Part shown: one piece after another, positions 11,904 through 36,444 of the stretch
Layout of the letters: the number at the start of each line of letters is the position of its first letter
Position numbering within the stretch: position 1 is the first letter of the stretch
Assembly (NCBI GenBank): GCA_000004695.1
Contig: CM000150.2
Coordinates: forward strand, 2,720,001-2,784,000
DNA from: Dictyostelium discoideum
Taxonomy: Eukaryota
DNA length: 64,000 nucleotides
Reading direction: 5' to 3'
Program-made: the position numbers and the translations under genes
Notes under the pieces: model-generated
The model's database searches: none
What the model saw: the letters and a program-made list of their open reading frames with translations, nothing else
What the model was told of the DNA's origin: nothing

Positions 11904-12599
11904 GTGGAAAATTCAATTTTCAATATAAAAGAAGATATTAAAAAAAAGAATGAATCAATAAATGTAACAAAAAAAATATTATTAGAGACATCAAACCTAG
12001 TTGTAAAAAATGCTCAAACCACAACCAATTTAGGTAATTTAAAGGGTGAAATTGAAAAAAAGTATGCAAAATTACAAAGTGAAATAAATAGTCTCAACAA
12101 TTACATAAATAGAGAAAGAAATGAAATTAATAATCTAAAAAGAGAAAATGACCGAAATTCACTTCCCCTGATCTTTAGGTTATTAAATCCATTTGGTGCT
12201 CTAATTGTTCTACTTTCAGATTTAAGTGGATTAAAATCAAGAGTAGCTTACAAACAAAAAGAAGTTAATAGAATGTCAAGAGAATTAGATTGTTTGACAA
12301 GCCAAAAAACACTTGTTACTCAATCACTCTCATATACTGAAAAAGAGATTGTCCAATTTAACAAAACTAAAAATTGTTTAGAGTTGTCACTCAATGGACT
12401 TGGTATTAAAAAAACTAATGATGAAAATTTAAAATTTGGATTGGAGTTATTAAAAATTGAATTTGGTATTCTTTCTGTTGACTCTGATTTAAGTAGGGAA
12501 TTATTAGAAATTGGTAGAAATCATGTTCCCAAATATGAAGAAAAATTAAAGATTTTATTCACTGAAAATAATTTAACCTTTAATTTAATTGAAAACTAA
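11904..12599 (+). CDS. Hypothetical coiled-coil ORF of 231 codons with no usable start codon; possible pseudogene.
   Basis: The track 'M' is a GTG. The only in-frame ATG (11850) is followed by an in-frame TAA at 11883, and no GT..AG intron can remove it. Confidence 0.3.
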   Translation: MENSIFNIKEDIKKKNESINVTKKILLETSNLVVKNAQTTTNLGNLKGEIEKKYAKLQSEINSLNNYINRERNEINNLKRENDRNSLPLIFRLLNPFGALIVLLSDLSGLKSRVAYKQKEVNRMSRELDCLTSQKTLVTQSLSYTEKEIVQFNKTKNCLELSLNGLGIKKTNDENLKFGLELLKIEFGILSVDSDLSRELLEIGRNHVPKYEEKLKILFTENNLTFNLIEN

Positions 12600-13098: not shown

Positions 13099-15675
13099 AA
13101 TATTATTATTATTTAATAATAATAATGGACTGCTTATACTATTTAAACTACTTTCAACATCAGCATCAGCATCATTGTCATCATCATTATCGGACAAAGA
13201 TAAAGATGATAATTGATCCTCTTCTTTAATTAATTGATGTTGAAGACATGATCTAAGATCTTCCATCCATTCTATTTTTTCAGTATGACTTTCTGCTAAT
13301 AGAACTAAACTAAATTCACAAGTTTCAATTTCAAAAGAGTAAACTGTATTACTTTTATTACTATTACTATTATTATTATTATTACTATTACATGATCTTC
13401 TTAATGTTTGATCCTCTGGATCAGCACTACCACTAGTAGCATCACCATTTCCACCTTCATATTCACCACCATCATCATCACCATCTACGCAAGCTTCACC
13501 TTCATCATCACTTAAAATATCAGATACATCAACAACTTGATCTAAATAGAAAACTTCTTTATATTTAAATTCTTTACCAGTTTCTTCTGATGGTTTATAT
13601 TTTACAAATAATAATAAATCACTAAATAAAAAGAAATAACTATCTTTTTTGAATGTATCTTCAATTTCTAAGAAACCTTCTCTAATATAAGTTCTTTCTT
13701 TATCCATTAAATTCTATTTTTAAATAAATAAATAAAAATAAAAATAAAAATGTTAGTTAAATATTAAAAAATAATAAATTAATAAATTAATAAAAATAAA
13801 TAACATACAAATTGTAAATTTTGAATTGAATCTTGAATTGAAAGGATTTTTCTTTTATTTTCTACAGCCATTTTTGATTCATTAACATGATCAGCAACTC
13901 TTTTAATATTTTCTTTTGCATTTTGAAGCATTTGATAATCTGGATGAGTTGAAGGTGTATATTTAATAACTTCTTTCAATAAAAGAATATATCTAACAAT
14001 TCTTTGAATTGGCATAATTAAATAACTATATAAATCCAATCCATTGTGTGTATCTTGAAATATTTCAAATGTATTTACTAATTCTTCAAAATTACTATTA
14101 CTTTTTTTTAATCTTTTAACTCTTTGATATGAATTATCATAATTATTAATATAATTTGTATAATTATCTTTTAAAAATTCACACTATTTTAATAAAATTA
14201 AAAAAATAAAAATTAGTATTAATAATTAACATATACATACAGATTTTAATTATAATAAATAATTAATACAAACTTTTTCTAAAAATACATCACCAATTGT
14301 AATATTTGAATCAAAAATACTATCACCAAAAATATTATTATGATTTTGATTTTGATTTGAATCATCAATTGTTAAATCATTAAAAGGTAAATTTAATTTT
14401 AATTTAAATTCTTTTAATAAATTAATATGAGATCTTAAAAGATGTTCCCAATTACCAAAGATTGAAGAGATTTCATCATTTGAAAGAATTGGTGAGTTTG
14501 TATCTAAAGAATTTAATAAAGGTACAATTAAGAGGTTATAAACTGTTGAGAGGGATTTAACATAACTTTGTTCAGTAGCAATGATTTCTTCAATGACTTT
14601 TTGTCTTCTAGTATCCATTGGAATTGATTTCATTTGATGATCAGTATCGAAATTCTCTCTAATTAATCTTGTGATCATACAAAGTGAATGAATATCACCA
14701 TTGAATAGATCATGTGGTGAGATATCTGAAACATTGTGAACTGAATTCTCTCTAAGGAAATTTAAAAGTAAACAAATATTTTGCATAAAATGCCATGGTA
14801 GTACAGGCTCCCTTGCGAAAATTCCGACTTTTTGTAATGTTAATTCTTCCAACAATGTCAATAACGTTACACCATTTCTCAAGTCATTAGACATATCAGA
14901 TCCAATCTGTAATGAATGATGTGCTCTCAAATGATGATTGATCCAATCTTTTAAATCTTTCATATCTTCTGGCGGTATTATTACACCACCATTACCACTA
15001 CTAGTATTACTACTACCATTACCAAACTTACTATGAATAATTGAACTATACATTTTCAATGGCGAGCCATCACTACCACCACCACCACCGATACCCCCAT
15101 TGCCACCATTGCCACCATTGCCAATATTCTTTATTAATGGTAGTTTCAAATGTGAATACATCTTATTGACATGGTTTCCTAAAACATGTATATTTGAAAT
15201 TACGAAATTTATATTCTTCTCTTCAAATAGATCAGGTGTATCGAATAAATCAGTTTTCTTTAACCCAACCACTAAACAACCTTTTAAATAATTTCCAATA
15301 TTTTCCATCTTTTTAAAACTACTATTACCATTGTTTATATAGAGTATTGTATTTGGTATGATGGTATTTATAACTCTACATAATAGAATACCATCTTTTA
15401 AAGAGGAACTAAATGACGGTAATTTAAACTTTTCTTTTGTCACCTCTTCAATCCAATCTTGTGCTGCTTTTTGAAGTTCTGGTGAGAATTTAAATGCTTC
15501 TTTAGTTCTAATATCACTATTCAATGATGATACTGCTGGTATTTTAACTGATTTTCTCCATTTAGCTTTCTTTCCATTTGATGATTTATTTAATGGATTA
15601 TTACTATAACTATTATAATTACTACTACCACCACTTGCACTCGTTATTGAAACTGGTGATAAATCACCATTACTT

Positions 15676-15712
<37 letters not shown>

Positions 15713-16502
15713 GATTACCACCAAATAATGGTGAAACTGGAGTTGTTGTAATTTTAATGATTTTTCTTTCACCTGCTAAATGTATACCATTATAACCTTC
15801 AATTTTAGAAGCATGTTTACCTAATACTACAATATTTGTAATCACTAACGAAATATCTTTATTTTCATGTAAATCGATTGAATTGAATAGGTTTACACTT
15901 TGTAAGCCTAATGTTTTACAAGCTTTTAAATAATTTTCAATATTTTCCAATTGTTTAAATGATATTGTACTTTCATTGATTCTCTTAATTGTACCACCTC
16001 TTAATTTATTAATTAATCTACATAATAATACACCATTTTTAAATAACTCATAAAAAGTTTTATCATCCTCCAATTGAATCTCCAATACATCACAAACCCA
16101 TTTTCTAGCGGTTTGTTCCAATGATGAATCATATTTAGCTTGTTTCTTCTTTTCAATATCATCTGTTAAACTTGTACATGATGGTTTCATTTGTAATGAT
16201 GTTATAACACCTTGATGTTGTTGCTGTTGTTGATGTGATGTTGATTGAATACTATTACTACTTGATGATAATAATGGTGATGGTGATGATGATAATGGTG
16301 ATATCAATGGACTTGAAACCGATGGTGATGTTATAAAATTATTACCACTCTCATTGTTTGTAATTGGTTTTGGTAATGTTGAACTACCACTATTCTTTAA
16401 TTTAGATGATTCGTCTTTACCATTATCTTTATCTTTTTTGCTACTACTACTACTACTAGCAATGGTATTTCTTTTTGAACTACCAAAAAAATTTGAAAAC
16501 AT
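12721..16502 (-). CDS. gxcB: RacGEF with three calponin-homology domains followed by DH and PH domains (Trix-type), 1198 aa. Exons about 16502..14274, 14183..13809 and 13713..12721.
   Basis: Three CH domains lie in the 750-aa ORF, for example WVCDVLEIQLEDDKTFYELFKNGVLLCRLINKL... and ...ISNIHVLG. The DH domain starts RQKVIEEIIATEQSYVKSL, runs ...IGDVFLEK|CEFLKDNYTNY...GLDLYSYLIMPIQRIVRYILLLKEV, and continues ...QNLQF|NLMDKERTYIREGFLEIED into the PH domain. Donors are gtttgt and gtatgt, acceptors aatag and aaatag. Exon lengths of 2229, 375 and 993 are all divisible by 3. The architecture and length match Dictyostelium Trix; the symbol is given with moderate confidence. Confidence 0.8.
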
Positions 16503-17131
16503 TTAATATATATATCTTTTCTTTTTTTTTTTTTTTTTTTTGGATTTGATTTTTATATCTTATTTTATTTTATTTATTGATGGCAAGTTATTTTTATTTT
16601 ATGTATATTTAAATTTAATTGATTTATTTATATTATTTATTTGTTTATTTATTTTTTTATATTTGATTATTTTTTAAATCTGATTTAATTTATTTGTTTG
16701 ATCTGATTTTATTTATTTATTTTTATTTTTAATTATTTTATTTTTAATTTTAATATATATATATTTTTATTATTACAATTATTGGTGGTTATTTTTATTT
16801 ATTGCTATTTTTAGTAATTTTGATATTTTTAGTTTTTTTTTTTTTTTATTTTTATTTTTTTTTTTTTATCTTTTTTTTTTTTTTAACCAAGATATATTAT
16901 TTTTTTATTTTTTTATTTTTTTTTAATTGCTTCTTTTGTTTATTTATTATTTATTATTATTATAATACTTTTTAAAAATAATTATTTTTATTATAATTGT
17001 TTTGAAAACAACCTCTTCGCACTATAAAAAAAAAAAAAAAAAAAAAAAAATTAAAATAAAAAAAAAAAAAAATTAAAATAAAAAAAAACTGAAAGAAAAA
17101 AAAAAAAAATTATTTGAATCCACCCCAAACC

Positions 17132-17176
<45 letters not shown>

Positions 17177-17839
17177 GATAATCGAGATGATTGGTAACTC
17201 AATATTCATATGTTTATTAATAAATATATAAAAAAAAATATATAAAAAAAGGAAAAAAAAATAAATAAAAAAAAAGGAAAAAAAAATAGATCTTGAGAAC
17301 TCAAATTAACTTGAAAATTGTGTTTTTTTTTTCCCCTTTGGTTTTTTTTTTCCCCTTTGGTTTTTTTTTTGGAAACTGTCTATCTTTTTTGATCTTTATA
17401 AATAATAAATTGTTCTTCAATTATTTGGAATAAAATTACAAGTTTAAATAAAAAGGAATTCAAGAAAAGTAAATTAATCAAATATTTTGAAAAATGGTGT
17501 TTTTTATTTTTTTTTTTTTTTTTATATTCCAATTTTCAAAGATTTCAAGTTTTACATTTATATTATTTTTAATTCAAGATTTTATTTTTGGAAAAAAAAA
17601 ATATAAAAAATAAAATAAAAAAAAAAAAAAAAAAAAAATATATCTTTTTTTTTTCTTTTTTTTCTTTTTTATTTTTTTATTTTTTTTTATTTTTTTTTCC
17701 TTCAACAAAAAAAAAAAAAAACAAATAAATTTAAATTTAGTCATTGTAGTAGTAATAATTTTATATGTTAATACTCCTAATAAAATATTAGTATATCAGG
17801 GTTATTAAAAATAAATTATTATCACTTTCATTAACTAAA

Positions 17840-17871
<32 letters not shown>

Positions 17872-18057
17872 AATAATAATACACTTATTAGTATATTTTT
17901 TATTTAACATTTAATTATCCTTTTATACATTTATACATTTATATTTATTTATAAAAAAAAAAAAAAAAAAATTCATATAGTATTTATTAGTTTTATATTT
18001 ATTTATATATATATTTAAAAAAAAAAAAAAAAAATAATAATAACCTCAATTTAAATA

Positions 18058-18940
18058 ATGTCAAATAAATCTCATACATCAGAAAAGGTTCAATTGAATG
18101 AATTTCTTCAAAAGAAAAAGCAACCCATACCAATTTATCATACTGAAAGCAAAGGATCCGAACATAATAAAGATTTTAAGGTATAAAGTGGTAATCATAG
18201 TTTGTTATAATAATTATTATTATTATTTAATATGATTACTATACAGTTTTATAGTAATCATATTAAATAATAATTATTATTATTATCACTATTATTATCT
18301 CTTTTTTTTTTTTTTTTTTTCTCTCTCTCTCTCCACCTATTATCTACTAACATTAAAAAAAAAAAAAATAAAATAAAAAATAAAAAAAATAAAAAAAATA
18401 AAACATAAAATATTTAAAGTCTATAGTAGTAGTAAATGGAAAACAAATTGAATCAGATTGGAAAAAGAGTAAAAAAGAATCTGAAAAAGATTGTGCAAAG
18501 AATATATTAGAGTTTATAGAAACACTAGATGGATATCCTATATACTTCACACCATTCAGTAAAGACCCCCCACAAAATAATAAGAAAATTTATGATGAAA
18601 AATTACAGGCAGTATACAATAGTGTCTCTTCAGGAATTGAAGGCTTAAACAATAATAGTTTTTTCACTAAAATTGAAAATAACAATAATAATAGTAGTAG
18701 TAATAATAATAATAACTTGGATCATAACCATTCAAATGACAGTAGTCATACTTCCACAGATAATAATGATAACAATAGTAATAATCATAATAATAATAAT
18801 AATAATCAAATAAACATTGATTTAACAATGGAAAATGTAAATATATCACAATCAAAAACAATCACTAACGAAGGTACCTTAAACAACGACAACGACAACA
18901 ATAACAATAGCATACAACAACAACAACACCAACCACAACC

Positions 18941-19033
<93 letters not shown>

Positions 19034-20498
19034 TTTTGATAAAGATAAAACAAATTTAAAAAAAAAAAAAAAAATTCCTTTCTCATATAATACAGACTTA
19101 ATAGAACATATTGATCTCTTTAAAAGACAAGATTTTCCACAAACTTATCCATCTCGAACAACGTATACAGATACTGGACATACACAACAATTACAAAAAC
19201 AAGTTTTCTTACTCACTGAAAAAATAGGGCTGATGGAATTATTTTATAAAAAACAAATTCGTGTCATTTTAAAATCCCATCATAATTTAGAAACAGAATT
19301 GTCAGCTCTTAAATCTTTTGTTGAAGATTGTTCTGTCACACCAATTGAAGGCCTTGAATTATATTCCATACCGGTTCCTTTAAACCCCAATGCAAAGCCT
19401 TCAGCAGGTACTACACCTGTATTGTCAAAATCAGAAACTCAAAATGAGATAATACAACCAACTAAACCACCAACTAAACCACCAGCAAGTTGTCTCATTA
19501 AAAAGAAAATACCAAATGTAAATATGAAAGCCACTAATAAAACAACAACAACAACTTCAACATCGACTTCAAATAGTTCAACAACAATAAAAACAACGGA
19601 TTCATTTAAAAATACCACTAATAATCAACATCCAAACACATTGAAACCTATGGTATCTAAAATAAACCAACAAACATCAGATTTTATTTTTCCACTACCC
19701 AAACCTATTATCAGAAGAAATCCTATTGGAAATGGTAATTTGGAAAAAAAAATAGAAAAGAAAAACTCTAAACCCAATACTATTGTTTTAGGAGTTGATA
19801 CTCAGTCACAATCAAAAACCAAAATTACACCATCACCAACAACACCACCACCAGAAACAACACCAACAACACCAACAACAACAGCAACACCAACAACACC
19901 AACAACACCAACAACACCAACAACAACAGCAACACCACCACCAACAACAACAGCAACACCACCACCAACAACAACAGCAACACCACCACCAACAGCAACA
20001 ACACCACCACCAACAACAGCAACAACAACACCACCACCACCACCAATAATAGCAACAACAAAAACAACAGCAACAGCAACAGCAACAACAATACCTATAG
20101 ATTTAAATGAAATACAGATACCAATTAGATCTCCTCAAGATTTAACAGTAAATCAATCTATGATATCAACAGCTATGATGATAGCTTCAGCGGCTCAAAG
20201 AAATCCAAAGCTAACAATGAAATTGAAAAGAAAGTTGGAAGAATCTCCAACATTGATGAGCAAACTACAAAAGATTCAATTTGAAAAAGAAGAGGAGATT
20301 TTATGTAGTCAAGACTTACATTCACCAATAATGAGTCCACAATCACCCACCCACCAACCAAAAACTTTAGAACCTCTTTCACCTACAAAGAAGAGTACTC
20401 AGAAATCACCTCCACCTACAAGCCCCTCTCCTATTGTAACAAGAGCAAGAGCTTCTTCAAATTTATTACCAATACAAAATTTAATTTCAAAAAAATAA
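18058..20498 (+). CDS. dsRNA-binding-domain protein, 733 aa, with an N-terminal dsRBD and a long polyQ / Thr-Pro-rich tail. Two exons: 18058..18180 and 18420..20498.
   Basis: Exon 1 reads MSNKSHTSEKVQLNEFLQKKKQPIPIYHTESKGSEHNKDFK. The donor gtataa is at 18181 and the acceptor (ttaaag) ends at 18419. Exon 2 reads SIVVVNGKQIESDWKKSKKESEKDCAKNILEFIE..., completing a canonical dsRBD (PxY...G..H...F...V.V.G....G.SKK.AK..AA). Exon 2 is in frame with track ORF 18717..20498. The architecture resembles the Dictyostelium RbdA/RbdB class. Confidence 0.75.
18205..18287. repeat. Near-perfect inverted repeat (hairpin with a 23-26 bp perfect stem and extended AT-rich arms) inside the intron of the dsRBD gene.
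   Basis: ttatttaatatgattactata cagtttta tagtaatcatattaaataa; the arms continue as (att/aat)n on both sides. Confidence 0.7.
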
Positions 20499-21023
20499 AA
20501 CTTTATTTAACATATAGCACCAAATTTCATTTTATACTTTTGTTTTCATGTAATAGTAGTATTAATTATAATAGCAATAAAAATTACATTTATTATATGG
20601 ATTTTTTATTTTTAATGTTTACTTTCCTATTTGGGATGAAATTATGAATCGATTGGTATTTTTAGAATTGTTTTCTTCTATACAAATTATATTCAGTTTA
20701 TATCTAATAAATATATTTTGTCGTGAATTTTAATAAAAATAAAAATTTTAATTTTTGGATTCGTTTTAGAACTCCATGATAGGATAATTTTTATTTTTAG
20801 ATTTATTTTATTTTATTTTTTTTATTTTTTTTATATTTCTATTTTTTTTATTTCTTTTTTTTTTTATTTATTTTAATAATAAAGAAAAAGTCAAAATAAA
20901 ATTAGAATATTTTTATTAGTGTATTTTAGGATCTCCAATTTTAAAAATAGCCAAACAATGTTAAATTCTTAATATATAAAAAAGTTGATTGTTTTCCTGG
21001 AAAATGTCAGCATATTTCATTAC

Positions 21024-21054
<31 letters not shown>

Positions 21055-21123
21055 TTTTTTTTTTTAATTATATAAATAGAAATTTTCTATTATTTTTTTT
21101 TTGTTTATTAATAAATTAAAAAA

Positions 21124-22151
21124 ATGTCAATATCATATAAAGATTTTAGGTATCCAGAATGTTGGAAAAGAAATCCAAATTCAAAAAATCAATATTTTGC
21201 AGAAATTTTTAAAGATTCAATTAAAGTTGGTATATATGAATTAAAAAATCAAAAACATTATTCATATATGGAGGATATTGTTGGAATTTGTAGATATTTT
21301 TATCCAACTATTGATAATGAACAATTGACATTATGTGGTACTTTTATGAATTGGTTATTCTTAATTGATGACTTTTTAGAATATTACAAGTGAAAAACAA
21401 AATGAAATTCTTAAAAGTCATGAACATATTTTATTCACTGATCAATTTTTAAATAGTGATGTTGAACCACCTACACTATGTGAAAAGTTAACAATCCTTT
21501 TACAAAATAGTTTAAAACAATGGGCTATTAAATATAAGAAATTGGAAACTTATAATATAACAATAACAACATTAATCCAATGGATGTATTCGGTGTACCC
21601 ATTAAATAAAATCTCTGATTTGACAGATCCAATTCATATGGATTTATATACATTTATTCGTAAAGTTAATTGTGGGGTTCCATCATCGATCGCTGTTGTT
21701 CTTTTAGTTGATAAAGAAATAAATGAAATTGATATTTCAAAAATTTTGTTAGATCCATTTTCACGTATTTTAGAAAATACTTCAATACACATTGGAATAA
21801 CTAATGACTGTGCCTCATATAATAGAGTTTAAAGTTGGTATTCATAAAAGCAATCCATTATACTTTTTACAAATTAATGAAAATTTATCATATGATGATA
21901 TATTAAAATCAATAATAAATAAATGCAATCAAAGAGTAAATCAAAAAGTTAATGATGAAGAATTGTTATTAAAACAATTAAAAGAACAAGGATATACTGA
22001 AAATCAATTAAATCAAGTAAATTTAATTTTAAACTATATTCATTATATTATTCAAGGTAATATAGGCTATTCAATATGTTCCAAAAGATATAATTCTATA
22101 GATCAAGAAGATAAAACCTTATTTGAAAAAAACAGATCATGTTATATATAA
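21124..22151 (+). pseudogene. Terpene synthase pseudogene, a tandem paralogue of the gene at 23300..24337.
   Basis: Three consecutive ORFs in three frames (21124..21393, 21542..21832, 21804..22151) are colinear with the intact copy. Compared with it, there is a frameshifting deletion right after LFLIDDFLE (...EYYK*) and a second 2-nt deletion plus TAA after NDCASY. Neither disruption is flanked by plausible splice sites. Confidence 0.75.
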
Positions 22152-22988
22152 TATTTTTTTAATTTGCTAAAATAAACTTTAAAACAATTAATATACTTTT
22201 TTTTTTTTTTTTTTTTTTTTATTGTTTATAATGTTTTTATTATTATTTATGTATTAGCAAACATTGAACATAATCCTTTTCAATTGGGTAATAACCACTT
22301 TGACCAAAGGCATCCTATAATCATACATGTCAATGGCACAGTGAATGTAACTTTCCAGCTTTCTTCAAACAGAGTTTCCCTTTCAGAATAGATTCCCTCC
22401 CATTTTATTATTGTTCATTTAGTTTATTTTATAAAATAATAAATATTAAATAAATATTAAATATTATTGAAAAAAAGAAAATATTAAATAAAATGGGGTT
22501 GTTGGTGGTGGGTTCGGTTGAAATTGAATAAAAAAAAATAAAAAAAAATTTCTAAAACACACTTTTTTTTATAATTTAATTTTTGTATTAAATTAAAATA
22601 TAAATAAAAAGTTTAATTTTAATTCTCAATGAAAAAAAAGATTCATTTTTTTTTTTTTGTATTTCAATATAAATTCAATATGAAAAAATATAGGATGAAT
22701 TAATAAATTTTAAAATTATAAAAAAGAATAAAAAAAAAAATTAATGAGTTATATTTATTTAAAAAACTAATTTAAAATTAATAATTACCACTAATTTAAA
22801 TTAGTATTAGAAAAATTGGCAAAAAAGATCTAAATTCTAATAAATAATTAGCCCCAAAAAAAATTAAATTTTTTAAAAAAATATTAAAAGATACATTTCC
22901 CTAAATAGTTATTATCCTATTAGGATTACCAAATTTAAAAGAATGTTTTACTTGAGTATTTTTTTTTTTTTTTTTTTTTAAAAAAAAG

Positions 22989-23068
22989 AACCAATTCTGG
23001 TTGCACCAATCTTTTTATTTTTTAAAAAAAAAAAAGAACAAATTCTGGATGCACCAATCTTTTTATTA
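22989..23068. repeat. 48-bp tandem duplication (gaac.aattctgg.tgcaccaatctttttatt, twice) about 230 bp upstream of the terpene synthase ATG.
   Basis: Read directly. The unit is GC-richer than its surroundings and may be a promoter element. Confidence 0.55.
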
Positions 23069-23299
23069 TAATACTTAAAATATTTATAGTTTAAAAAAGG
23101 GGGTGTTATTTTCATTTAAAAATGATAAAAAAACAATATATTTTTTATTTATAAAAATAATTAATTGATTTTTGGTTTTATAATTTGAAATTATATTTAA
23201 AATAAAATTAAAAACCAACTTTATATCCAATTTTTGAAAACAATAAATACAAGAAAAAAAAAAAATTTTAATTAGTTTTAAAATAAATAATTAAAAAAA

Positions 23300-24337
23300 A
23301 TGAATATTTTATTAAAAGATTTTAAATACCCAGAGTCATGGAATAAAAGCCCAAATCAAAGCAATCAATATATTGATCAAGTTTTTGAAGATACAAATAA
23401 AATTGGAATTTATGAATTAAATAATCAAGATCATTATTTATACGTAGAAAATTTATTAAATGTTACTTCTTATTTGTATCCAACCTTTGATAAAGAGCAA
23501 TTAAGATTATGTGCTACCTATTTGCATTGGTTATTTTTAATTGATGATTTTTTAGAAGACGAATACAATACAATGTCTGAAAAACAAAATGACGTTATAA
23601 AAAGTCATGCACAAATATTATTAACTGGCCAATATTTGAATAGTGATGTTGATGTGAAACCATCAGAAAAATTAACAATGTTTTTACAAAATACTTCCAA
23701 AGATTGGGCAATTAAATATAATAAATTTGATGTTCATAATATTTATATGACAACTTTATTTCAATGGTTATATTCAGTTTATCCATTAAATAAAACCACA
23801 GAATCAACCAAACCAATTCATATGGATTTATATACATTTATTCGTAAAGTTAATATTGGTGTTGCAGGTTCAATCATTGTTGGTCTTTTAGCGGATAAGG
23901 ATATTACTGATATTGATATTTCAAAAATTTGGTTAAATCCAATATTCACACGTATAATGGAAAATTCAACTATCCAAATTGGCCTTGTAAATGATTGTGC
24001 ATCCTATGACAAAGAATATGCCAATGGTGGTCACATCACTAATCCATTATACTTTTTGCAAGTTAGAGATAATTTAACATTTAATGAAACACTTAATTTT
24101 ATTGTTAATAAATGTAATCAAAGTATAGATGAAATAATTAAAGATGAGCAATTATTATTAAAACAATTAAAAGATCAAGGATATACTGAAAATCAATTAA
24201 ATCAAGTAAATATAATTTTAAATTATAATCATAATTTAATTCAAGGTAATATTAATTGGTCATTAATTTCAAAAAGATATAATAATCATGATGGTAAACC
24301 TTTTATTTTTGAAAATACAAAATCAAAATACATTTAA
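23300..24337 (+). CDS. Microbial-type (class I) terpene synthase, 345 aa, single exon.
   Basis: The aspartate-rich motif [10 protein letters not shown] (DDxxD/E) and the NSE/DTE triad NDCASYDKE are both present. The size and the absence of introns fit Dictyostelium TPS genes. Confidence 0.85.
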
Positions 24338-24469
24338 ATAAAAAAAAGACATTTATCATTTATAGAATCGTTATTATATTGCATTTTTTTTTTATTTTTT
24401 TTTTTACATAGTGTTCGATTGAAATTTGAGAATGAGATTAATAAATATAAGGTTGTGTTTTACAATGTT

Positions 24470-24494
<25 letters not shown>

Positions 24495-24502
<8 letters not shown>

Positions 24503-27094
24503 TACCAGTGTCAACTGTACCACCAGCTTTCTTTAATTTAACAGCAGATGGATCAAAGGATGGCATAATTGGAACTCCACCAGATGGAGGTGGTCTATTG
24601 GCAGCTGGTTTCTTTAATTTAACAGCAGATGGATCAAAACCCATTGGCATCATTGAAACTCCACCAAATTTATTTGGTGATGATTTTGATGGGGAAGTGG
24701 TGGTAGTGGTAGTTGAGGTTAAAGATTCACTTTCTTCTTCATCATCGTCATGTTTTGAATAACTGATTACCTCTTTAATTGCTGGATGTTCAGATAATTT
24801 ACGAGTTGATTTCTTTCTAGTAATCTTAACTTTTGGTCTTTCCAATGTCATATGTTGTAATTTCTTATAACTAGCTTTGCCACCCTCTGATTGGTCATCA
24901 TCACCATCATGACCTCTCTTTCTCTTATCATGATGAGAATGATCAATTGATGGTGATACTGTTTTTGATTGTTGTTTTTCTTTTTCTTCTTTTTCTTTTA
25001 ATGCTTTTTGTTCATCCTCTAATCTTTTATTTTCTGCTTCGGCTGCTAATCTTTCCTCTTCTGCTTTCTTTGCTGCAACTGCTGCAACTTCTTCTGCAAT
25101 TCTTTTAGCTTCTTTTTCAGCTGCTAATCTCTCTTCCTCTGCTTTCTTTGCTGCTTCTGCTGCTAATCTTTCTTCTTCTTTCTTTGCTGCTTCTGCTGCT
25201 AATCTTTCTTCCTCTGCTTTCTTTGCTGCTTCTGCTGCTAATCTTTCCTCTTCTTCTTTCTTTGCTGCTTCTGCTGTTAATCTTTCTTCTTCTGCTTTCT
25301 TTGCTACTTCAGCTGCTAATCTTTCCTCTTCTTCTTTTTTTACTGCCTCAGCTGCCAATCTTTCTTCTTCTTTCTTTGCTGCTTCAGCTGCTAATCTTTC
25401 TTCTTCTGCTTTCTTGGCTGCTTCAGCTGCTAATCTTTCTTCTTCTGCTTTCTTTGCTGCTTCAGCTGCTAATCTCTCCTCTTCTGCTTTCTTGGCTGCT
25501 TCAGCTGCTAATCTATCTTCTTCTGCTTTTTTGGCTGCTTCAGCTGCTAATCTTTGTTCTTCAGCTTTCTTGGCTGCTTCGGCTGTTAATCTGTCTTCCT
25601 CTGCTTTTTTGGCAGCTTCTTCTGCTAATCTGGCTTCTTCGGCTCTTTTAGCTTCCTCTTCAGCAATTCTCTTTGCCTCTTGTTCATCAGCTAATCTCTT
25701 CTTCTCAATTTCAGCTAATCTCTCCTCTTCTTCTTTCTTGGCTGCCTCAGCTGCTAATCTATCTTCTTCTGCTTTCTTTGCTGCTTCAACTGCTAATCTC
25801 TCCTCTTCAGCTTTCTTTGCTGCTTCAGCTGCTAATCTGTCATCTTCTGCTTTTTTGGCAGCGGCTTCTTCTGCTAATTTCTTTGTTTGTTCTTCTTCAG
25901 CTAATCTTTTCTTTTCGAGTTCAGCTAATCTATCTTCCTCTACTTTCTTTGCAGCTTCTTGAGCAACTCTGTTTGCCTCTACTTCCTCTGTCAATTTTTT
26001 CTCTTCTGCTAATCTTGATTCTTCAGCTAATCTCTTCTCTTCTGCCAATCTAGCTTCCTCTGCTAATCTCTTTGCTTCTTCTTCTTCTGATCTCTTCTTT
26101 TCGAGTTCAACCAATCTCTTTTCTTCAGCCAATCTAGCTTCTTCTGTCAATCTTTTGTTTTCAGATTCTTCAGCAGCCAATCTATCATTTTCAAGTTTCT
26201 TTGCAACAGCGGCTTGTTCATCAGCTAATCTTTTCTTTTCTTGTAATTCTAATTTTCTTTGTTTTTCTTTTTCCAATTGTTCTTGTTCTTGTTTTTGTTT
26301 TTCTTCTTGATCCTTTTTGAATTTCTCTTGTCTTTCCTTATCCAATTGTTCATTTCTTTGTTTTAATTTTTCACGACGTTCTTTTTCTAAACGATCTTTC
26401 TCTTGTTTCTCTTGTTCTTCTTTATCACGAATTTCTTGTCTTTCCTTTTCCAATTGTTCATTTCTAAGTCTAAGTTTTTCTCTGTGTTCAGCATCTTCAC
26501 GTTCTTGTCTTTGTTTCTTTTCATTGTTAACACGATCTTGTTCTTCTTTTCTCTTTCTTTGTTCTTGTTCACGCTCTTCACGTTCTGCCTCTTCTTTTTG
26601 TTGATTTAATCTCTCTTTCTCTTCTTCAATCTTTTGTTTTAATTTTCTTTCTTTCTCTAATCTTTCTTTTTGTCTTTGTTCTTTACGTTCTTTTTCATCT
26701 TTTTCTCTACGTTGTTTTGCTTCTTCTCTTTCTTTTTCTAATTTTTCAATTCTTTCTTTTTCTGCTAATGTTGATGTTACAGTTGGAGTTGTTGTTGTTG
26801 TTGGAGTTGTTGTTGTTGTGGTGGTAGTGGTAGTGATTGGAGTATGAGTTGTATCAGTAGTATTTGAAGAAGATGGTTCAGATTTTGGGTTTTCCTGTTG
26901 TTGTCCTTGTTCTACCTTTTTATCAATTTCCAATTTATTATTTTCTACCAATGTGTTTGTTGCATCATTTAAATCTTCATATGATGGTTTTCTATTGCCT
27001 AATGTTGAATCAATATCATAAATTTCATCTAAAAATAGAATTTTAATTTTAATTTTTTCAAAAAAAAAAAAAAACTCCAAGTTATTATTAACAT

Positions 27095-27133
<39 letters not shown>

Positions 27134-27528
27134 TTAAATAATAAATTTTTAAAAAATTTTAAAAACTTACCACCAAATTTTAATTTATCATCAGTAATTC
27201 TTTGAATAGTTGTACCAGAAGGAGCGAAAAAGATTGTTAATAAAGGTAACTCTGCTAAATAGAATAAAACAATACCAGTCATATGGACTTCATTCATTGC
27301 AACATCTTCTCTAAAACTAAGTAATAATGGACTCTCTTTTAATTGATCAGGATTACTAATTAATTGTTTCTCTTTTTCAATTGCAAGTGGGTCTCCTTTT
27401 GAAACTTTACGTAATGGATAAAATGATGACTCTTTTTTAAGTGTTGGAGGGTTGGATGCTGTTGTAGTCGTTGTTTCTTGTGCTGGAGTTCCATACCACC
27501 ATGAATAAAAGTAATCTAAAAGTGCCAT
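24495..27528 (-). CDS. Large (963 aa) membrane-anchored protein with an E/K/R/A-rich coiled-coil repeat region and C-terminal tandem FDPSAVKLKK motifs. Two exons: 27528..27171 and 27028..24495.
   Basis: Exon 1 starts at ATG 27528 (MALLDYFYSWWYGTP...HMTGIVLFYLAELPLLTIFFAP...KLKFGG). The donor gtaagt is at 27170 and the acceptor (atttttag) ends at 27029. The junction codon is g+at=D, giving ...KFGGDEIYDIDSTLGN... in frame with track ORF 24495..27080, whose MEFFFFF start is intron read-through. The body holds about 20 copies of AAEAAKKAEEERL-type 16-aa repeats. Confidence 0.7.
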
Positions 27529-27823
27529 ATTTTTTTCAAAAAAAAAAAAAAACAAAATAAAATGAAATAAAAATATATAAATATGTAAATATATATATAT
27601 ATTTAAGAGATATTACTATAAATTATTTATTTATTTTATTATTTGTGGAATTTTAATATTATACAAGTTATCGATATTTAAAAATAATAATTATTATTCT
27701 TTGAATAATCAAAAAAAAAAAAAAAAAATTAATGTTGTGTGTATTAATATTTAAAATATAATTTAGGATGTGGGTGTTAATTATTTGAATTGTTTTATAA
27801 AAAAAATTAAATTGAATTTAATG

Positions 27824-27869
<46 letters not shown>

Positions 27870-28061
27870 TTTTTATTTATTTTTTTTTTTTATTTTATTT
27901 TGTCGGGGTTCCTTAGATTGGTTTAATCTAAATAAAATTTATTTTTAAATTATTTTTTTTTTAAAAAAATTAAAAATTAATTTTTTAAGTTATTTGATTA
28001 ATTATTTGTGTTTTTGAGTTTTATTATTATTATTTTGATTTTATTTTATTATTTTTTTAAG

Positions 28062-28096
<35 letters not shown>

Positions 28097-28241
28097 AAAG
28101 AAAAAAAAAAAAAAAAAAAAATTGAAAAAAAAAAAAATTATTTGAAAAGAAGGTTAGTATCATTATTTGAAATTGAAAATCCAAAGTGTGAAAAAAAGTA
28201 AAAACCCTCCAAAAAATTTTTTGATTTTTGATTTTTTTTTT

Positions 28242-33470: not shown

Positions 33471-36444
33471 ATGAAAATAAATTTAAATTTATTTTTCATT
33501 GTTGTTTTATTACTTTTATTAACAACAAATTCAAATTTTATAAATGGTGAAAAGGATAACGATGATAATGAAAATAATGATAATAACAATAATAATAATA
33601 ATAACAATAATAATAATAACAATAACGAAAATACATTTGTAATTGCAAATGCAGGGGATTTAGACCCAGAAACATTAGAAAAAATTAAAAATTCATTATT
33701 TCAAATAAAACATCACCGTATTATTAGAGAAGAACCTGAGGAGGAGGAAGATGATCATCATGATCATCATGATAGTAATGATGATAATGAAGAAATAAAA
33801 ACAAATAAAAAAAGAAAAAAAGTCAATAATTTAGAACTAAGAGATCAATTTATAATTCAAGGTAGTAATATAGTTAAAGAGAAACCACCAACATCATCAA
33901 CTAAAAGGAGTGATTTAGATGATAATCATAATAATAACAATCATCATCATCTTTACCATGGTTATTATGGTGAAAATGAAGAAGATCATTCATTTTTATT
34001 TGATTTTACAAATTCAAATGTTAGACCAGATAGAGAGTTACCAGGTAGAGATTTATTAATTGAAGCACAAAGATATAGGGGATATTTATTGTATGATAAG
34101 TTAACATCACCAACTCATCCATTCAGTAATTCAATTATGATTCATGGTTTTGATTTATCAACTGATAGAGATTTATTTGAGTTTAAAGGTCAATCGAAAT
34201 TAACTCCACTTGATTCAACAAAAGCTTATCAATTATTATTAGATTCTGCAAATCAAGGTAACCATCGTGCAATGTATTTATTAGGTGTTATGAATGAAGT
34301 AAGTAAATAATAAAATAAATTAATAAATAATGATAATTTAATTATGTTAACATTTTATTATTAAATTTTAATTTTAGATTGGTGAAAATAATAATAATGG
34401 TAATATGGATTTTGTGTTGGCAGAAGAATGGTATTTGAAATCAGCAGAGTATGGTAATTCAGATGCACAAAGATCATTAGGATTTTTATATGCAACTGGA
34501 AAATTGGGATATATTGACGAGGCGAAAGCAATTTTATATTATTCATTCGCTGCAAGGTCTGGTAATATTGTGGCACAGTTGACGATGGCTTATAGGTATT
34601 TACATGGTTATGGTGTTGAAAAGAGTTGTAAGAAGTCATCAATACTCTATGACAAGGTGGCAGCAAGAGTTGTGTCAGATTATGAAATGAGGGGATTCGG
34701 TTACCAAGTGAATTCTCAAAGATTTTCAGAAGAGAGAAAGAGAACACACGGTTATCAAGAGGATAGTGATATAGTGGACTATTTGAAATACTCGTCAGAT
34801 GATCCTGTGACAATGGGTAGACTATATTTGGAGGGCAATTTAGTGCAACAGGACTTCCAATTGGCGTTCGACTACTTTAAGCGTGCTTCGTCAATGGGTC
34901 TAGCTGGCGGCTACTCTGGATTGGGTTTTATGTATAATATGGGCTATGGAGTTATACAATCAAATAAAACAGCGTTCAGCTATTATGTCAAGGCTTCGGA
35001 TTTGGGTGATAAAGATGCAAAGTCGAATCTTGCTGAACTTTATTTCTTTGGATATGGTGTTAATCAAAACACACAAAAAGCAATAGATATTTGGATGGAG
35101 AATTCTCAATATACTGTAGAAACTCATAATGCACATGCAAGTTTTAAAAAAGGTGGTAGTGGCAAGGAGACCATTGTTCAAACTCTTTATCATGCACCAT
35201 CGAATGCTCATTTGGGTAGGGTGTTTGCTTATCATGGTACCAATGGTCAAGGTCAAGGTATTGATCGTAGTAAAGCATTACATTACTTTTCACATGCAAT
35301 CTCTGCTGGTGACATTGGCTCATTCTATCATTTCTCAAAGATTCATTTAGATAAAGATCCATCCTCATGTCCATACGTTGTTCAATATATGAAAAAGATC
35401 GCTGAAAAAGGTGCATGGGCAATCATATTAACAAAGGCTCAAGATCTTTATGAAGAGGATGATACTGATCGTGCATTATTATTAAGTGAAAAAGCAGCTG
35501 AAATGGGTATTGAAATGGCTCAATTTAATTCTGCTTGGATGTATGATAAACGTTTAGGTTTATCATCATATTATAAATCATTAGAGGAACGAGAAGAAGA
35601 AGAACAAGAACAAAAACAAGAAGATAATAGTGATAAAGGTAGAATTGAAGATGAAATTGTAGATTTAATAATTGGTGAGGATAATACAAATAATAAAGAG
35701 GAAGAAGAAGAAGACCAACCAATTAATAAATTATTTAATAAAGACTTTTGGGATCAACAAGCATTTAGATATTATGATTATTCAGCGGAACAATTAAATC
35801 CATTAAGTAGAATAAAGATTGGTGATTTCTTTTATTATGGTATTGGAGTTGAAAAAAGTTTTGAATTAGCAGCAGAGAGTTATAAACAAGCAGCATCAGT
35901 CAGTCAACCAATGGCATTGTTTAATTTGGGTTATCTCTATCAATATGGTGAAGGTGTACCTCAAGATTTCTTTTTAGCAAAGAGATATTACGACCTATCA
36001 TTAACCTATCAACCAAAAGGTTATATACCTGTATATCTATCATTGATTAGTTTATTCTTTCACTTTATTTATACTTTTATTTGTTCATTATTTGATCCAT
36101 CAATTAAAATTTCCTCAACGTCACAAATTGATCCAAAAATAATTTCTCAACAAACTACAACATTAAATAGCGATAAAACAACCACCACCACCACAACAGC
36201 AGGATTTGATAATGATTTTGGTGTAGGTGGTATATTAAATAATTTTTCATTTGATAATGAACTCATTCATCAATTAGAGTCATATACAATGATATTATTT
36301 GCAATTATAATTGGTTTCCTTGTAATAAGAAGACAAAGAATCATTTTAAATCAACAAAGACATCCAATTCGTCAACAACAACCACAACAACCACAACAAC
36401 CACAACAACAAGAACAACAACAACAACAACAACAACAACAATAA
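33471..36444 (+). CDS. SEL1L/Hrd3-like Sel1-repeat ER membrane protein, 964 aa, with a signal peptide, multiple Sel1 repeats and a C-terminal TM helix. Two exons: 33471..34298 and 34378..36444.
   Basis: ...LLGVMNE | gtaagt has its donor at 34299 and the acceptor (ttttag) ends at 34377. Exon 2 IGENNNNGNMDFVLAEEWYLKSAEYGNSDAQRSLGFLYATG... is in frame with track ORF 34405..36444. Recurrent A.YYL/G..Y..G.GV..D...A..WY..AA..G...AQ Sel1 motifs are present. The TM helix is YTMILFAIIIGFLVIRRQRI and the tail is polyQ-P. Confidence 0.8.

Follow-up and report, generated by a model that had tools for sequence, protein, structure and literature searches.

Tandem arrays of terpene synthase (TPS) genes in plants contain pseudogenes, and tandem duplication of such genes is also documented in the dictyostelids. 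Dictyostelium purpureum carries DpTPS4 and DpTPS5 as a tandem repeat (PMC6524965), and the TPS set of D. discoideum has been described as 'nine full-length genes' (PMC6524965), DdTPS1-9, all of which are expressed in multicellular development and all of which are active in vitro (PMC6524965). DdTPS1, one of these nine characterised enzymes (Chen et al. 2016, summarised in PMC6524965 and PMC6156593), contributes sesquiterpene products to the volatile bouquet (PMC6524965), and prespore cells are enriched for it (PMC6156593). Here we analysed a stretch of 64,000 nucleotides (nt) of D. discoideum AX4, assigned to chromosome 1 (GCA_000004695.1, contig CM000150.2, positions 2,720,001 to 2,784,000 of the forward strand; G+C content 22.6%), referred to below as the window, in which an intact TPS gene at 23300..24337, DdTPS1, stands beside a broken TPS copy at 21124..22151. 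With a probability that we put at about 0.9, DdTPS1 is a working gene, the upstream copy is a pseudogene with two frameshifts that arose as a recombinant of two members (A and B) of a lineage-specific array, and the 297-amino-acid product annotated for it is an artefact. The locus resembles DpTPS4/DpTPS5 in its local tandem duplication of TPS genes followed by divergence or decay, but it differs from that pair and from the plant arrays in that turnover can be traced among very close lineages and the dead copy is traceable to recombination between A and B.

The intact gene lies on the plus strand as one open reading frame (ORF) without introns, encoding 345 amino acids. An exact-sequence look-up matched the product of 23300..24337 at every residue to XP_645958.1 / EAL72064.1 / TPS1_DICDI. 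The gene is the already known DdTPS1 (DDB_G0269428, UniProt Q55E23, 'Terpene synthase 1'; hereafter TPS1), identical over its full length to the database entry, with no difference. The first-pass annotation, made from the letters of the DNA, had called 23300..24337 a class I terpene synthase on the strength of its DDFLED and NDCASYDKE motifs and had proposed a comparison with the nine known D. discoideum TPS genes; both motifs are present, together with a match to the Pfam family PF19086, and the intact copy is itself one of the nine. Three sites in TPS1 carry its family signature:

23543..23560, plus strand: Asp-rich metal-binding motif DDFLED, amino acids 82-87 (from the translation)
23990..24016, plus strand: NSE/DTE metal-binding motif NDCASYDKE, amino acids 231-239 (from the translation)
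24275..24280, plus strand: C-terminal RY pair, amino acids 326-327 (R326 and Y327 invariant in alignment A5)

The first two motifs satisfy the class I patterns DDxx(D/E) and (N/D)Dxx(S/T)xx(K/R)(E/D), and an RY pair is a feature of bacterial and fungal TPSs. In an alignment of nine intact family members, D82, D83, F84, L85, E86 and D87 of TPS1 are invariant, as are N231, D232, S235 and E239. TPS1 scored 49.5 bits against the Pfam profile PF19086, Terpene_syn_C_2 (gathering cut-off 23.7; E = 5.5e-13), with the match spanning profile positions 2-198 of 199. All of its sequence matches in the PDB were class I sesquiterpene synthases, with profile E-values of 3e-7 to 6e-4, including the fungal/bacterial entries 7ofl, 8h6q (presilphiperfolan-8-beta-ol synthase), 8gr5 (AcCop4) and 4mc0, which have the Asp-rich and NSE/RY regions in common with TPS1 while being only distantly similar to it in sequence; no dictyostelid TPS structure was among these matches. 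An AlphaFold2 model of TPS1, built with a nine-sequence alignment, was too poor to search for the all-alpha class I terpenoid cyclase fold (mean predicted local distance difference test score, pLDDT, 45.6; predicted template-modelling score, pTM, 0.36). TPS1 is constrained: in the pairwise comparison with its orthologue in the related assembly L001, the ratio of non-synonymous to synonymous rates (omega) is 0.15, at a synonymous divergence (dS) of 0.18.

The upstream copy, 21124..22151 on the plus strand, is colinear with TPS1 from end to end, at 75% nucleotide identity and, once its frames are corrected, 60% amino-acid identity. A tblastn search recovered the whole TPS1 protein from this interval in three successive frames (1, 2, 0, in that order; E = 7e-111). 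The full-length nucleotide alignment of the two copies, which had been suggested as a check, and the three-frame match both agree with the earlier description of a colinear copy that is broken into three frames, and the resemblance goes far beyond chance. Lesions were called in alignment A2 against four related copies from other assemblies (L001, L003, L004a and L004b), and comprise the following, with lengths in base pairs (bp):

21379/21380, plus strand: derived 11-bp deletion, of AAGATGAAGAA in the orthologues (A2 columns 257-267; three-frame translation)
~21466..21468, plus strand: in-frame 3-bp insertion found in the AX4 copy alone (A2 columns 354-356; seen against TPS1 too)
21756/21757, plus strand: in-frame 3-bp deletion found in the AX4 copy alone (A2 columns 645-647)
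21824..21827, plus strand: derived 2-bp deletion, AGAGAG, (AG)3 to (AG)2 (A2 columns 715-716)

There are two frameshifts in total, the 11-bp and the 2-bp deletion, each of which moves the frame by one. Both are missing from all four comparison copies, and three of these four are uninterrupted ORFs. L005, too, holds related copies free of the two deletions. The 11-bp deletion falls within GAAGATGAAGAA, at the Asp-rich motif and just after DDFL(E), where it shifts the frame by +1 and is followed by the stop TGA at 21391..21393. The 2-bp deletion costs the NSE motif NDCASYNR(E) its Glu codon, shifts the frame and is followed by TAA at 21830..21832. Both stops are the first to be met in the frames abandoned after each deletion. 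The first-pass annotation had listed two small deletions and an in-frame TAA as separate defects; the deletions stand, at 11 bp and 2 bp, and the TAA at 21830..21832 is no independent nonsense mutation, since it follows from the 2-bp shift. Because both deletions sit in short direct repeats, we infer that they are of the replication slippage type.

What the upstream copy lacks is the continuous ORF with both metal-binding motifs that characterises a functional class I TPS; what it retains are the marks of a duplicative pseudogene, namely full-length homology, a tandem position, preserved flanks and derived lesions. As judged from its sequence, 21124..22151 is a non-processed terpene synthase pseudogene, which has presumably lost its function and would be expected to give no useful transcript. 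Two perfect runs shared with TPS1 were seen in alignment A1, from which their positions are approximate: one of ~42 nt (CCAATTCATATGGATTTATATACATTTATTCGTAAAGTTAAT; 21634..21675 against 23816..23857) and one of ~33 nt (GGATATACTGAAAATCAATTAAATCAAGTAAAT; ~22005..22037 against 24184..24216). Amid 75% identity, such runs could reflect strong codon constraint or small gene-conversion tracts.

Changes polarised with outgroups were then counted on the AX4 pseudogene branch and on its intact sister branch. The pseudogene branch carries 6 synonymous and 16 non-synonymous changes (omega ~0.61), and neutrality is not rejected (p = 0.28); on the intact sister branch there are 10 synonymous and 7 non-synonymous changes (omega ~0.16), with p = 0.00026 against neutrality. 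Of 124 positions at which nine intact proteins all agree, the pseudogene is altered at 6, G110D and W212L among them. The leave-one-out count at such positions is weak as a control, since close pairs shield one another.

We compared the locus with seven related loci, L001-L007. Synteny holds in all assemblies, with the same upstream gene on one side and the coiled-coil and Mago-nashi genes on the other, and the TPS copies that lie between them are as follows:

D. dimigraforme (L007): one intact TPS
D. citrinum (L006): one intact TPS, with a degraded C-terminal fragment upstream, L006 7246..7555
D. cf. discoideum L005 (GCA_054859205.1): copy A at 8001..9041, with a TAA nonsense mutation at codon 283 and RY changed to RK; copy B intact; TPS1 with two 1-bp deletions
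D. cf. discoideum L004: copy a intact; copy b at 8001..9028, with a 10-bp deletion; TPS1 intact
'D. discoideum' L001 and L003: copy A a fragment with ~500 bp lost internally (L001 4606..5087, L003 4659..5063); copy B and TPS1 intact
AX4 and L002: one upstream copy and TPS1

Every assembly of the D. discoideum complex that we examined thus contains at least one disabled copy, and the comparison of seven loci lends support to the earlier suggestion that the window holds a snapshot of birth and death in a gene family. The TPS1 orthologue of L005 (11842..12884) has lost 1 bp at codon 3 and another near 12390, contains an insertion of 6 bp and reads SF in place of RY. It is possibly disabled too, but each 1-bp loss falls in a homopolymer and may be an error of assembly. 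The annotation of L005 joins this TPS1 orthologue to the B copy in a single protein of 638 amino acids (P0013).

Two of the assemblies labelled D. discoideum, L001 and L003 (GCA_054859385.1 and GCA_054859355.1), are only ~90% identical to AX4 across window positions 16500..28100, flanks included. Because TPS1 has a dS of 0.18 and the flanks are likewise ~90% identical, the comparison shows L001 and L003 to represent a lineage deeply diverged from AX4 despite the species label. Divergence of this extent is far beyond conspecific expectation and suggests a cryptic species or mislabelling of the two assemblies. Hypervariability specific to the locus was considered as the reason why the orthologues in L001 and L003 diverge by ~9%, and was rejected, since the flanks are equally divergent (~90% over 5 kb) and the dS of TPS1 is as high as given above.

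The other assemblies also hold intact counterparts of the broken copy. B-type P0005 and P0014 (346 amino acids) and A-type P0006 (346 amino acids) lie upstream of TPS1 in syntenic position, like the AX4 copy. The intact A- and B-type copies are single ORFs with DDFLEDEEN and NDCASYNRE whole and evolve under purifying selection (omega 0.14), whereas the AX4 copy is hybrid and frameshifted; frame-corrected, it has 86% amino-acid identity to the intact B-type protein and 79% to the intact A-type. In neighbour-joining trees, the AX4 copy falls among A-type genes by its 5' 250 nt and among B-type genes by its 3' ~630 nt. The same division is seen at the 51 sites that are informative between A and B: up to 21477, 19 of 20 are A-type, and from 21547 on, 29 of 31 are B-type, the other two being private to the AX4 copy. 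The flanks follow suit. A flanks are the closest to the 300 nt upstream of the AX4 copy (229/248 and 209/243, compared with 172/250 in the case of B), and B flanks are the closest to the 150 nt downstream. One further feature is placed by these data:

21477..21547, plus strand: single switch from A to B, the putative junction of an unequal crossover (informative sites; 5' against 3' neighbour-joining clades)

These comparisons identify the dead copy as an A::B recombinant, with the promoter and ~350 nt at the 5' end from A and the rest from B, and not as a simple decayed duplicate. They point to one unequal crossover between A and B, collapsing a three-copy array, as the simplest history of this copy, which is favoured because a single event would explain the A-type upstream flank, the B-type downstream flank and the loss of one copy.

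In the AX4 annotation, 21124..22151 appears as the gene DDB_G0270514 (XP_645957.1, UniProt Q55E24), a 'hypothetical protein' of 297 amino acids. Its model could be reconstructed exactly from the protein (P0009):

21124..21353, 21418..21764 and 21835..22151, plus strand: the three exons of the DDB_G0270514 model
21354..21417, plus strand: 'intron 1' of the model, 64 nt, 20% GC, GTTATT...AAAG, covering the 11-bp deletion
21765..21834, plus strand: 'intron 2' of the model, 70 nt, 27% GC, GTATTT...AAAG, covering the 2-bp deletion

Each of the two introns spans one of the frame breaks and takes out a metal-binding motif, intron 1 the Asp-rich motif and intron 2 the NSE motif. The DDB_G0270514 product has both catalytic motifs gone and no Pfam match on record. 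A literature search that did not extend to the original 2016 DdTPS1-9 paper or the 2005 genome paper returned no paper naming DDB_G0270514.

The first-pass annotation had itself allowed that the frame breaks might be spliced out or might be sequencing errors. Splicing is what the DDB_G0270514 model asserts, and if the model were right, the locus would be a real three-exon gene for a non-catalytic, TPS-like protein of 297 amino acids: the GT...AG boundaries at 21354..21417 and 21765..21834 do give back an unbroken frame whose translation is exactly XP_645957.1, and an A-type promoter flank is kept upstream. Both 'introns', however, align codon for codon with coding sequence of TPS1 and of all copies free of the deletions, DDxxD and NSE motifs included, and the intact family members whose DNA was studied each read as one ORF without interruption. 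In GC content (20% and 27%) the two introns are exon-like, against 9-18% across the neighbouring spacers and about 10-13% in the flanking ones. Their 5' sites, GTTATT and GTATTT, differ from the Dictyostelium 5' splice site consensus, which is GTAAGT, and at 64 and 70 nt they are well under the mean intron length of 146 nt (PMC3188802). The annotation of L002, made on identical DNA, uses other junctions and adds a third intron that reaches into a spacer ORF (P0012), and even if spliced, the DDB_G0270514 product would be without both metal-binding motifs. We consider a functional three-exon gene very improbable and read the model as a gene-prediction artefact, in which ad hoc introns bridge the frameshifts; locus and three-exon protein are the same as in the annotation, and here they are interpreted as a pseudogene. 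Errors of sequencing or assembly in the reference, which would leave the upstream gene intact in AX4, are harder still to credit. AT-rich Dictyostelium sequence is generally error-prone, and nothing specific speaks for error at this site. An independent D. discoideum assembly from the AX4 lineage, L002 (GCA_054883475.1), differs from the window over 13.3 kb by ten homopolymer-length insertions or deletions and two single-nucleotide polymorphisms and by nothing else, yet it is 100% identical to the window over all 1028 nt of the broken copy (1028/1028), both deletions included, and the deletions of 11 bp and 2 bp lie in non-homopolymer sequence. Since L002 carries the identical broken copy, the frameshifts are real in the AX4 lineage, and an error in the reference has next to no chance of explaining them.

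The crossover has a competitor of its own in a history in which copy A converted the 5' part of copy B and was lost in a separate event. Conversion is common between tandem paralogues, and the single switch among the informative sites fits one conversion tract reaching the 5' end. The A-type sequence, however, takes in the upstream 300-nt flank as well, with a B-type flank downstream, and AX4 is exactly one copy short of the three-copy arrays, for which conversion needs an extra deletion event; we regard this history as unlikely. Several points nonetheless weigh against our proposal as a whole. Conversion followed by loss of copy A could yield the same chimera as a single crossover. Between the pseudogene and intact branches, the contrast in omega is marginal and no more than suggestive (Fisher p = 0.059). 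Being almost the same as AX4, L002 is uninformative on how far the lesions have spread in wild isolates, and its assembly may have been guided by the reference. The locus 21124..22151 could still be transcribed, or even spliced as annotated.

In the history that we propose, the array at this locus grew from one copy to three (A, B and TPS1) within the D. discoideum species complex, and A and B then recombined unequally in the AX4 lineage at 21477..21547. One repeat unit (~1.95 kb, going by the spacing in L005) would have been deleted in the process, leaving one A::B hybrid under the control of the A promoter. In the order of events that we infer, the hybrid would subsequently have taken two slippage-type deletions, of 11 bp and 2 bp, as a result of which it would be unable to encode a terpene synthase. 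TPS1 is the working class I sesquiterpene synthase of the locus.

This account adds that the dead copy originated as an A::B recombinant, that diverged lineages hold intact orthologues of it and that each assembly examined in the complex contains at least one disabled copy. The event is an ordinary one of birth and death, and it leaves the understanding of terpene synthases and of gene-family evolution unchanged. Within those bounds, the locus may offer a clean, datable case of unequal crossover and slippage deletions acting in the birth and death of an amoeba secondary-metabolite gene family, and DDB_G0270514 (Q55E24) would merit re-annotation as a terpene synthase pseudogene, the tenth and dead TPS locus of AX4. 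The enzyme in question would have been lost in the reference laboratory lineage and is kept intact in divergent assemblies labelled D. discoideum; terpene profiles from AX4 may therefore under-represent the species complex. A wider proposal, tentative and in our estimate somewhat unlikely, is that the TPS1 locus is a fast-turnover array with a different copy disabled in almost every lineage, and that AX4/NC4 lacks a sesquiterpene synthase made by sister lineages. If that were true, volatile terpene blends would differ between close lineages, with possible consequences for the recognition of species or kin or for ecological interactions.

The spacer between the pseudogene and TPS1 holds three further features:

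22254..22400, no strand assigned: GC-richer patch, 36% GC, in a spacer otherwise of 10-18% GC (composition profile)
22964..23059, plus strand: two-copy 48-bp tandem duplication, 241-336 nt upstream of the TPS1 ATG, AX4 lineage only
23050..23299, plus strand: TPS1 proximal upstream region, presumed core promoter (spacer alignment A4; blastn match from 23057)

Conservation of the proximal region 23050..23299 extends to L001 and L003 and, in part, to L005; it sets in near 23050, where the second copy of the 48-bp repeat has its 3' end. The 48-bp repeat consists of two copies, 22964..23011 and 23012..23059, that are 85% identical in a repeat search; its non-homopolymer core, at 22988..23011 and 23036..23059, had 0 matches in shuffles of the window and among the other loci is found in L002 alone. 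Tandem Repeats Finder made no call of the repeat, which was found by repeat and motif searches. A 48-bp tandem repeat had previously been placed at 22989..23068, in the promoter of the intact gene: the repeat is real, and its copies lie at 22964..23059, upstream of the conserved proximal promoter. It is a recent, lineage-specific duplication just upstream of that promoter, and nothing in the sequence comparison indicates a function for it. The GC-richer patch at 22254..22400 is present in L002 and missing from L001, L003, L004 and L005, a distribution that marks it as an insertion in the AX4 lineage. Searches with the patch gave no protein homologue on either strand and no further copy in the window or in the compared loci except L002, and the window contains no transfer RNA genes that could serve as markers of TRE-type insertion. 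Open frames of ~45 codons run through the patch on both strands, and the L002 annotation splices the plus-strand ORF onto the pseudogene.

Several other genes in the window were noted in passing. Those directly next to the two TPS copies both encode low-complexity proteins. On the minus strand, 24495..27080 encodes a coiled-coil protein of 861 amino acids with many AEEERLAAEAAKK-like repeats, the length of which varies from 807 to 1003 amino acids between assemblies. Upstream of the pseudogene, 18717..20498 (plus strand) encodes a low-complexity protein of 593 amino acids with poly-Q and poly-T-P tracts, and 14253..16502 (minus strand) is a CH-domain and RhoGEF gene. The window also contains a second tandem duplication, 33471..36444 and 36997..40268. 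Each unit opens with an ORF that has no Pfam match (33471..34310 and 36997..38169), which is followed by a Sel1-repeat ORF (Pfam PF08238) of 679 amino acids at 34405..36444 in one unit and of 655 amino acids at 38301..40268 in the other.

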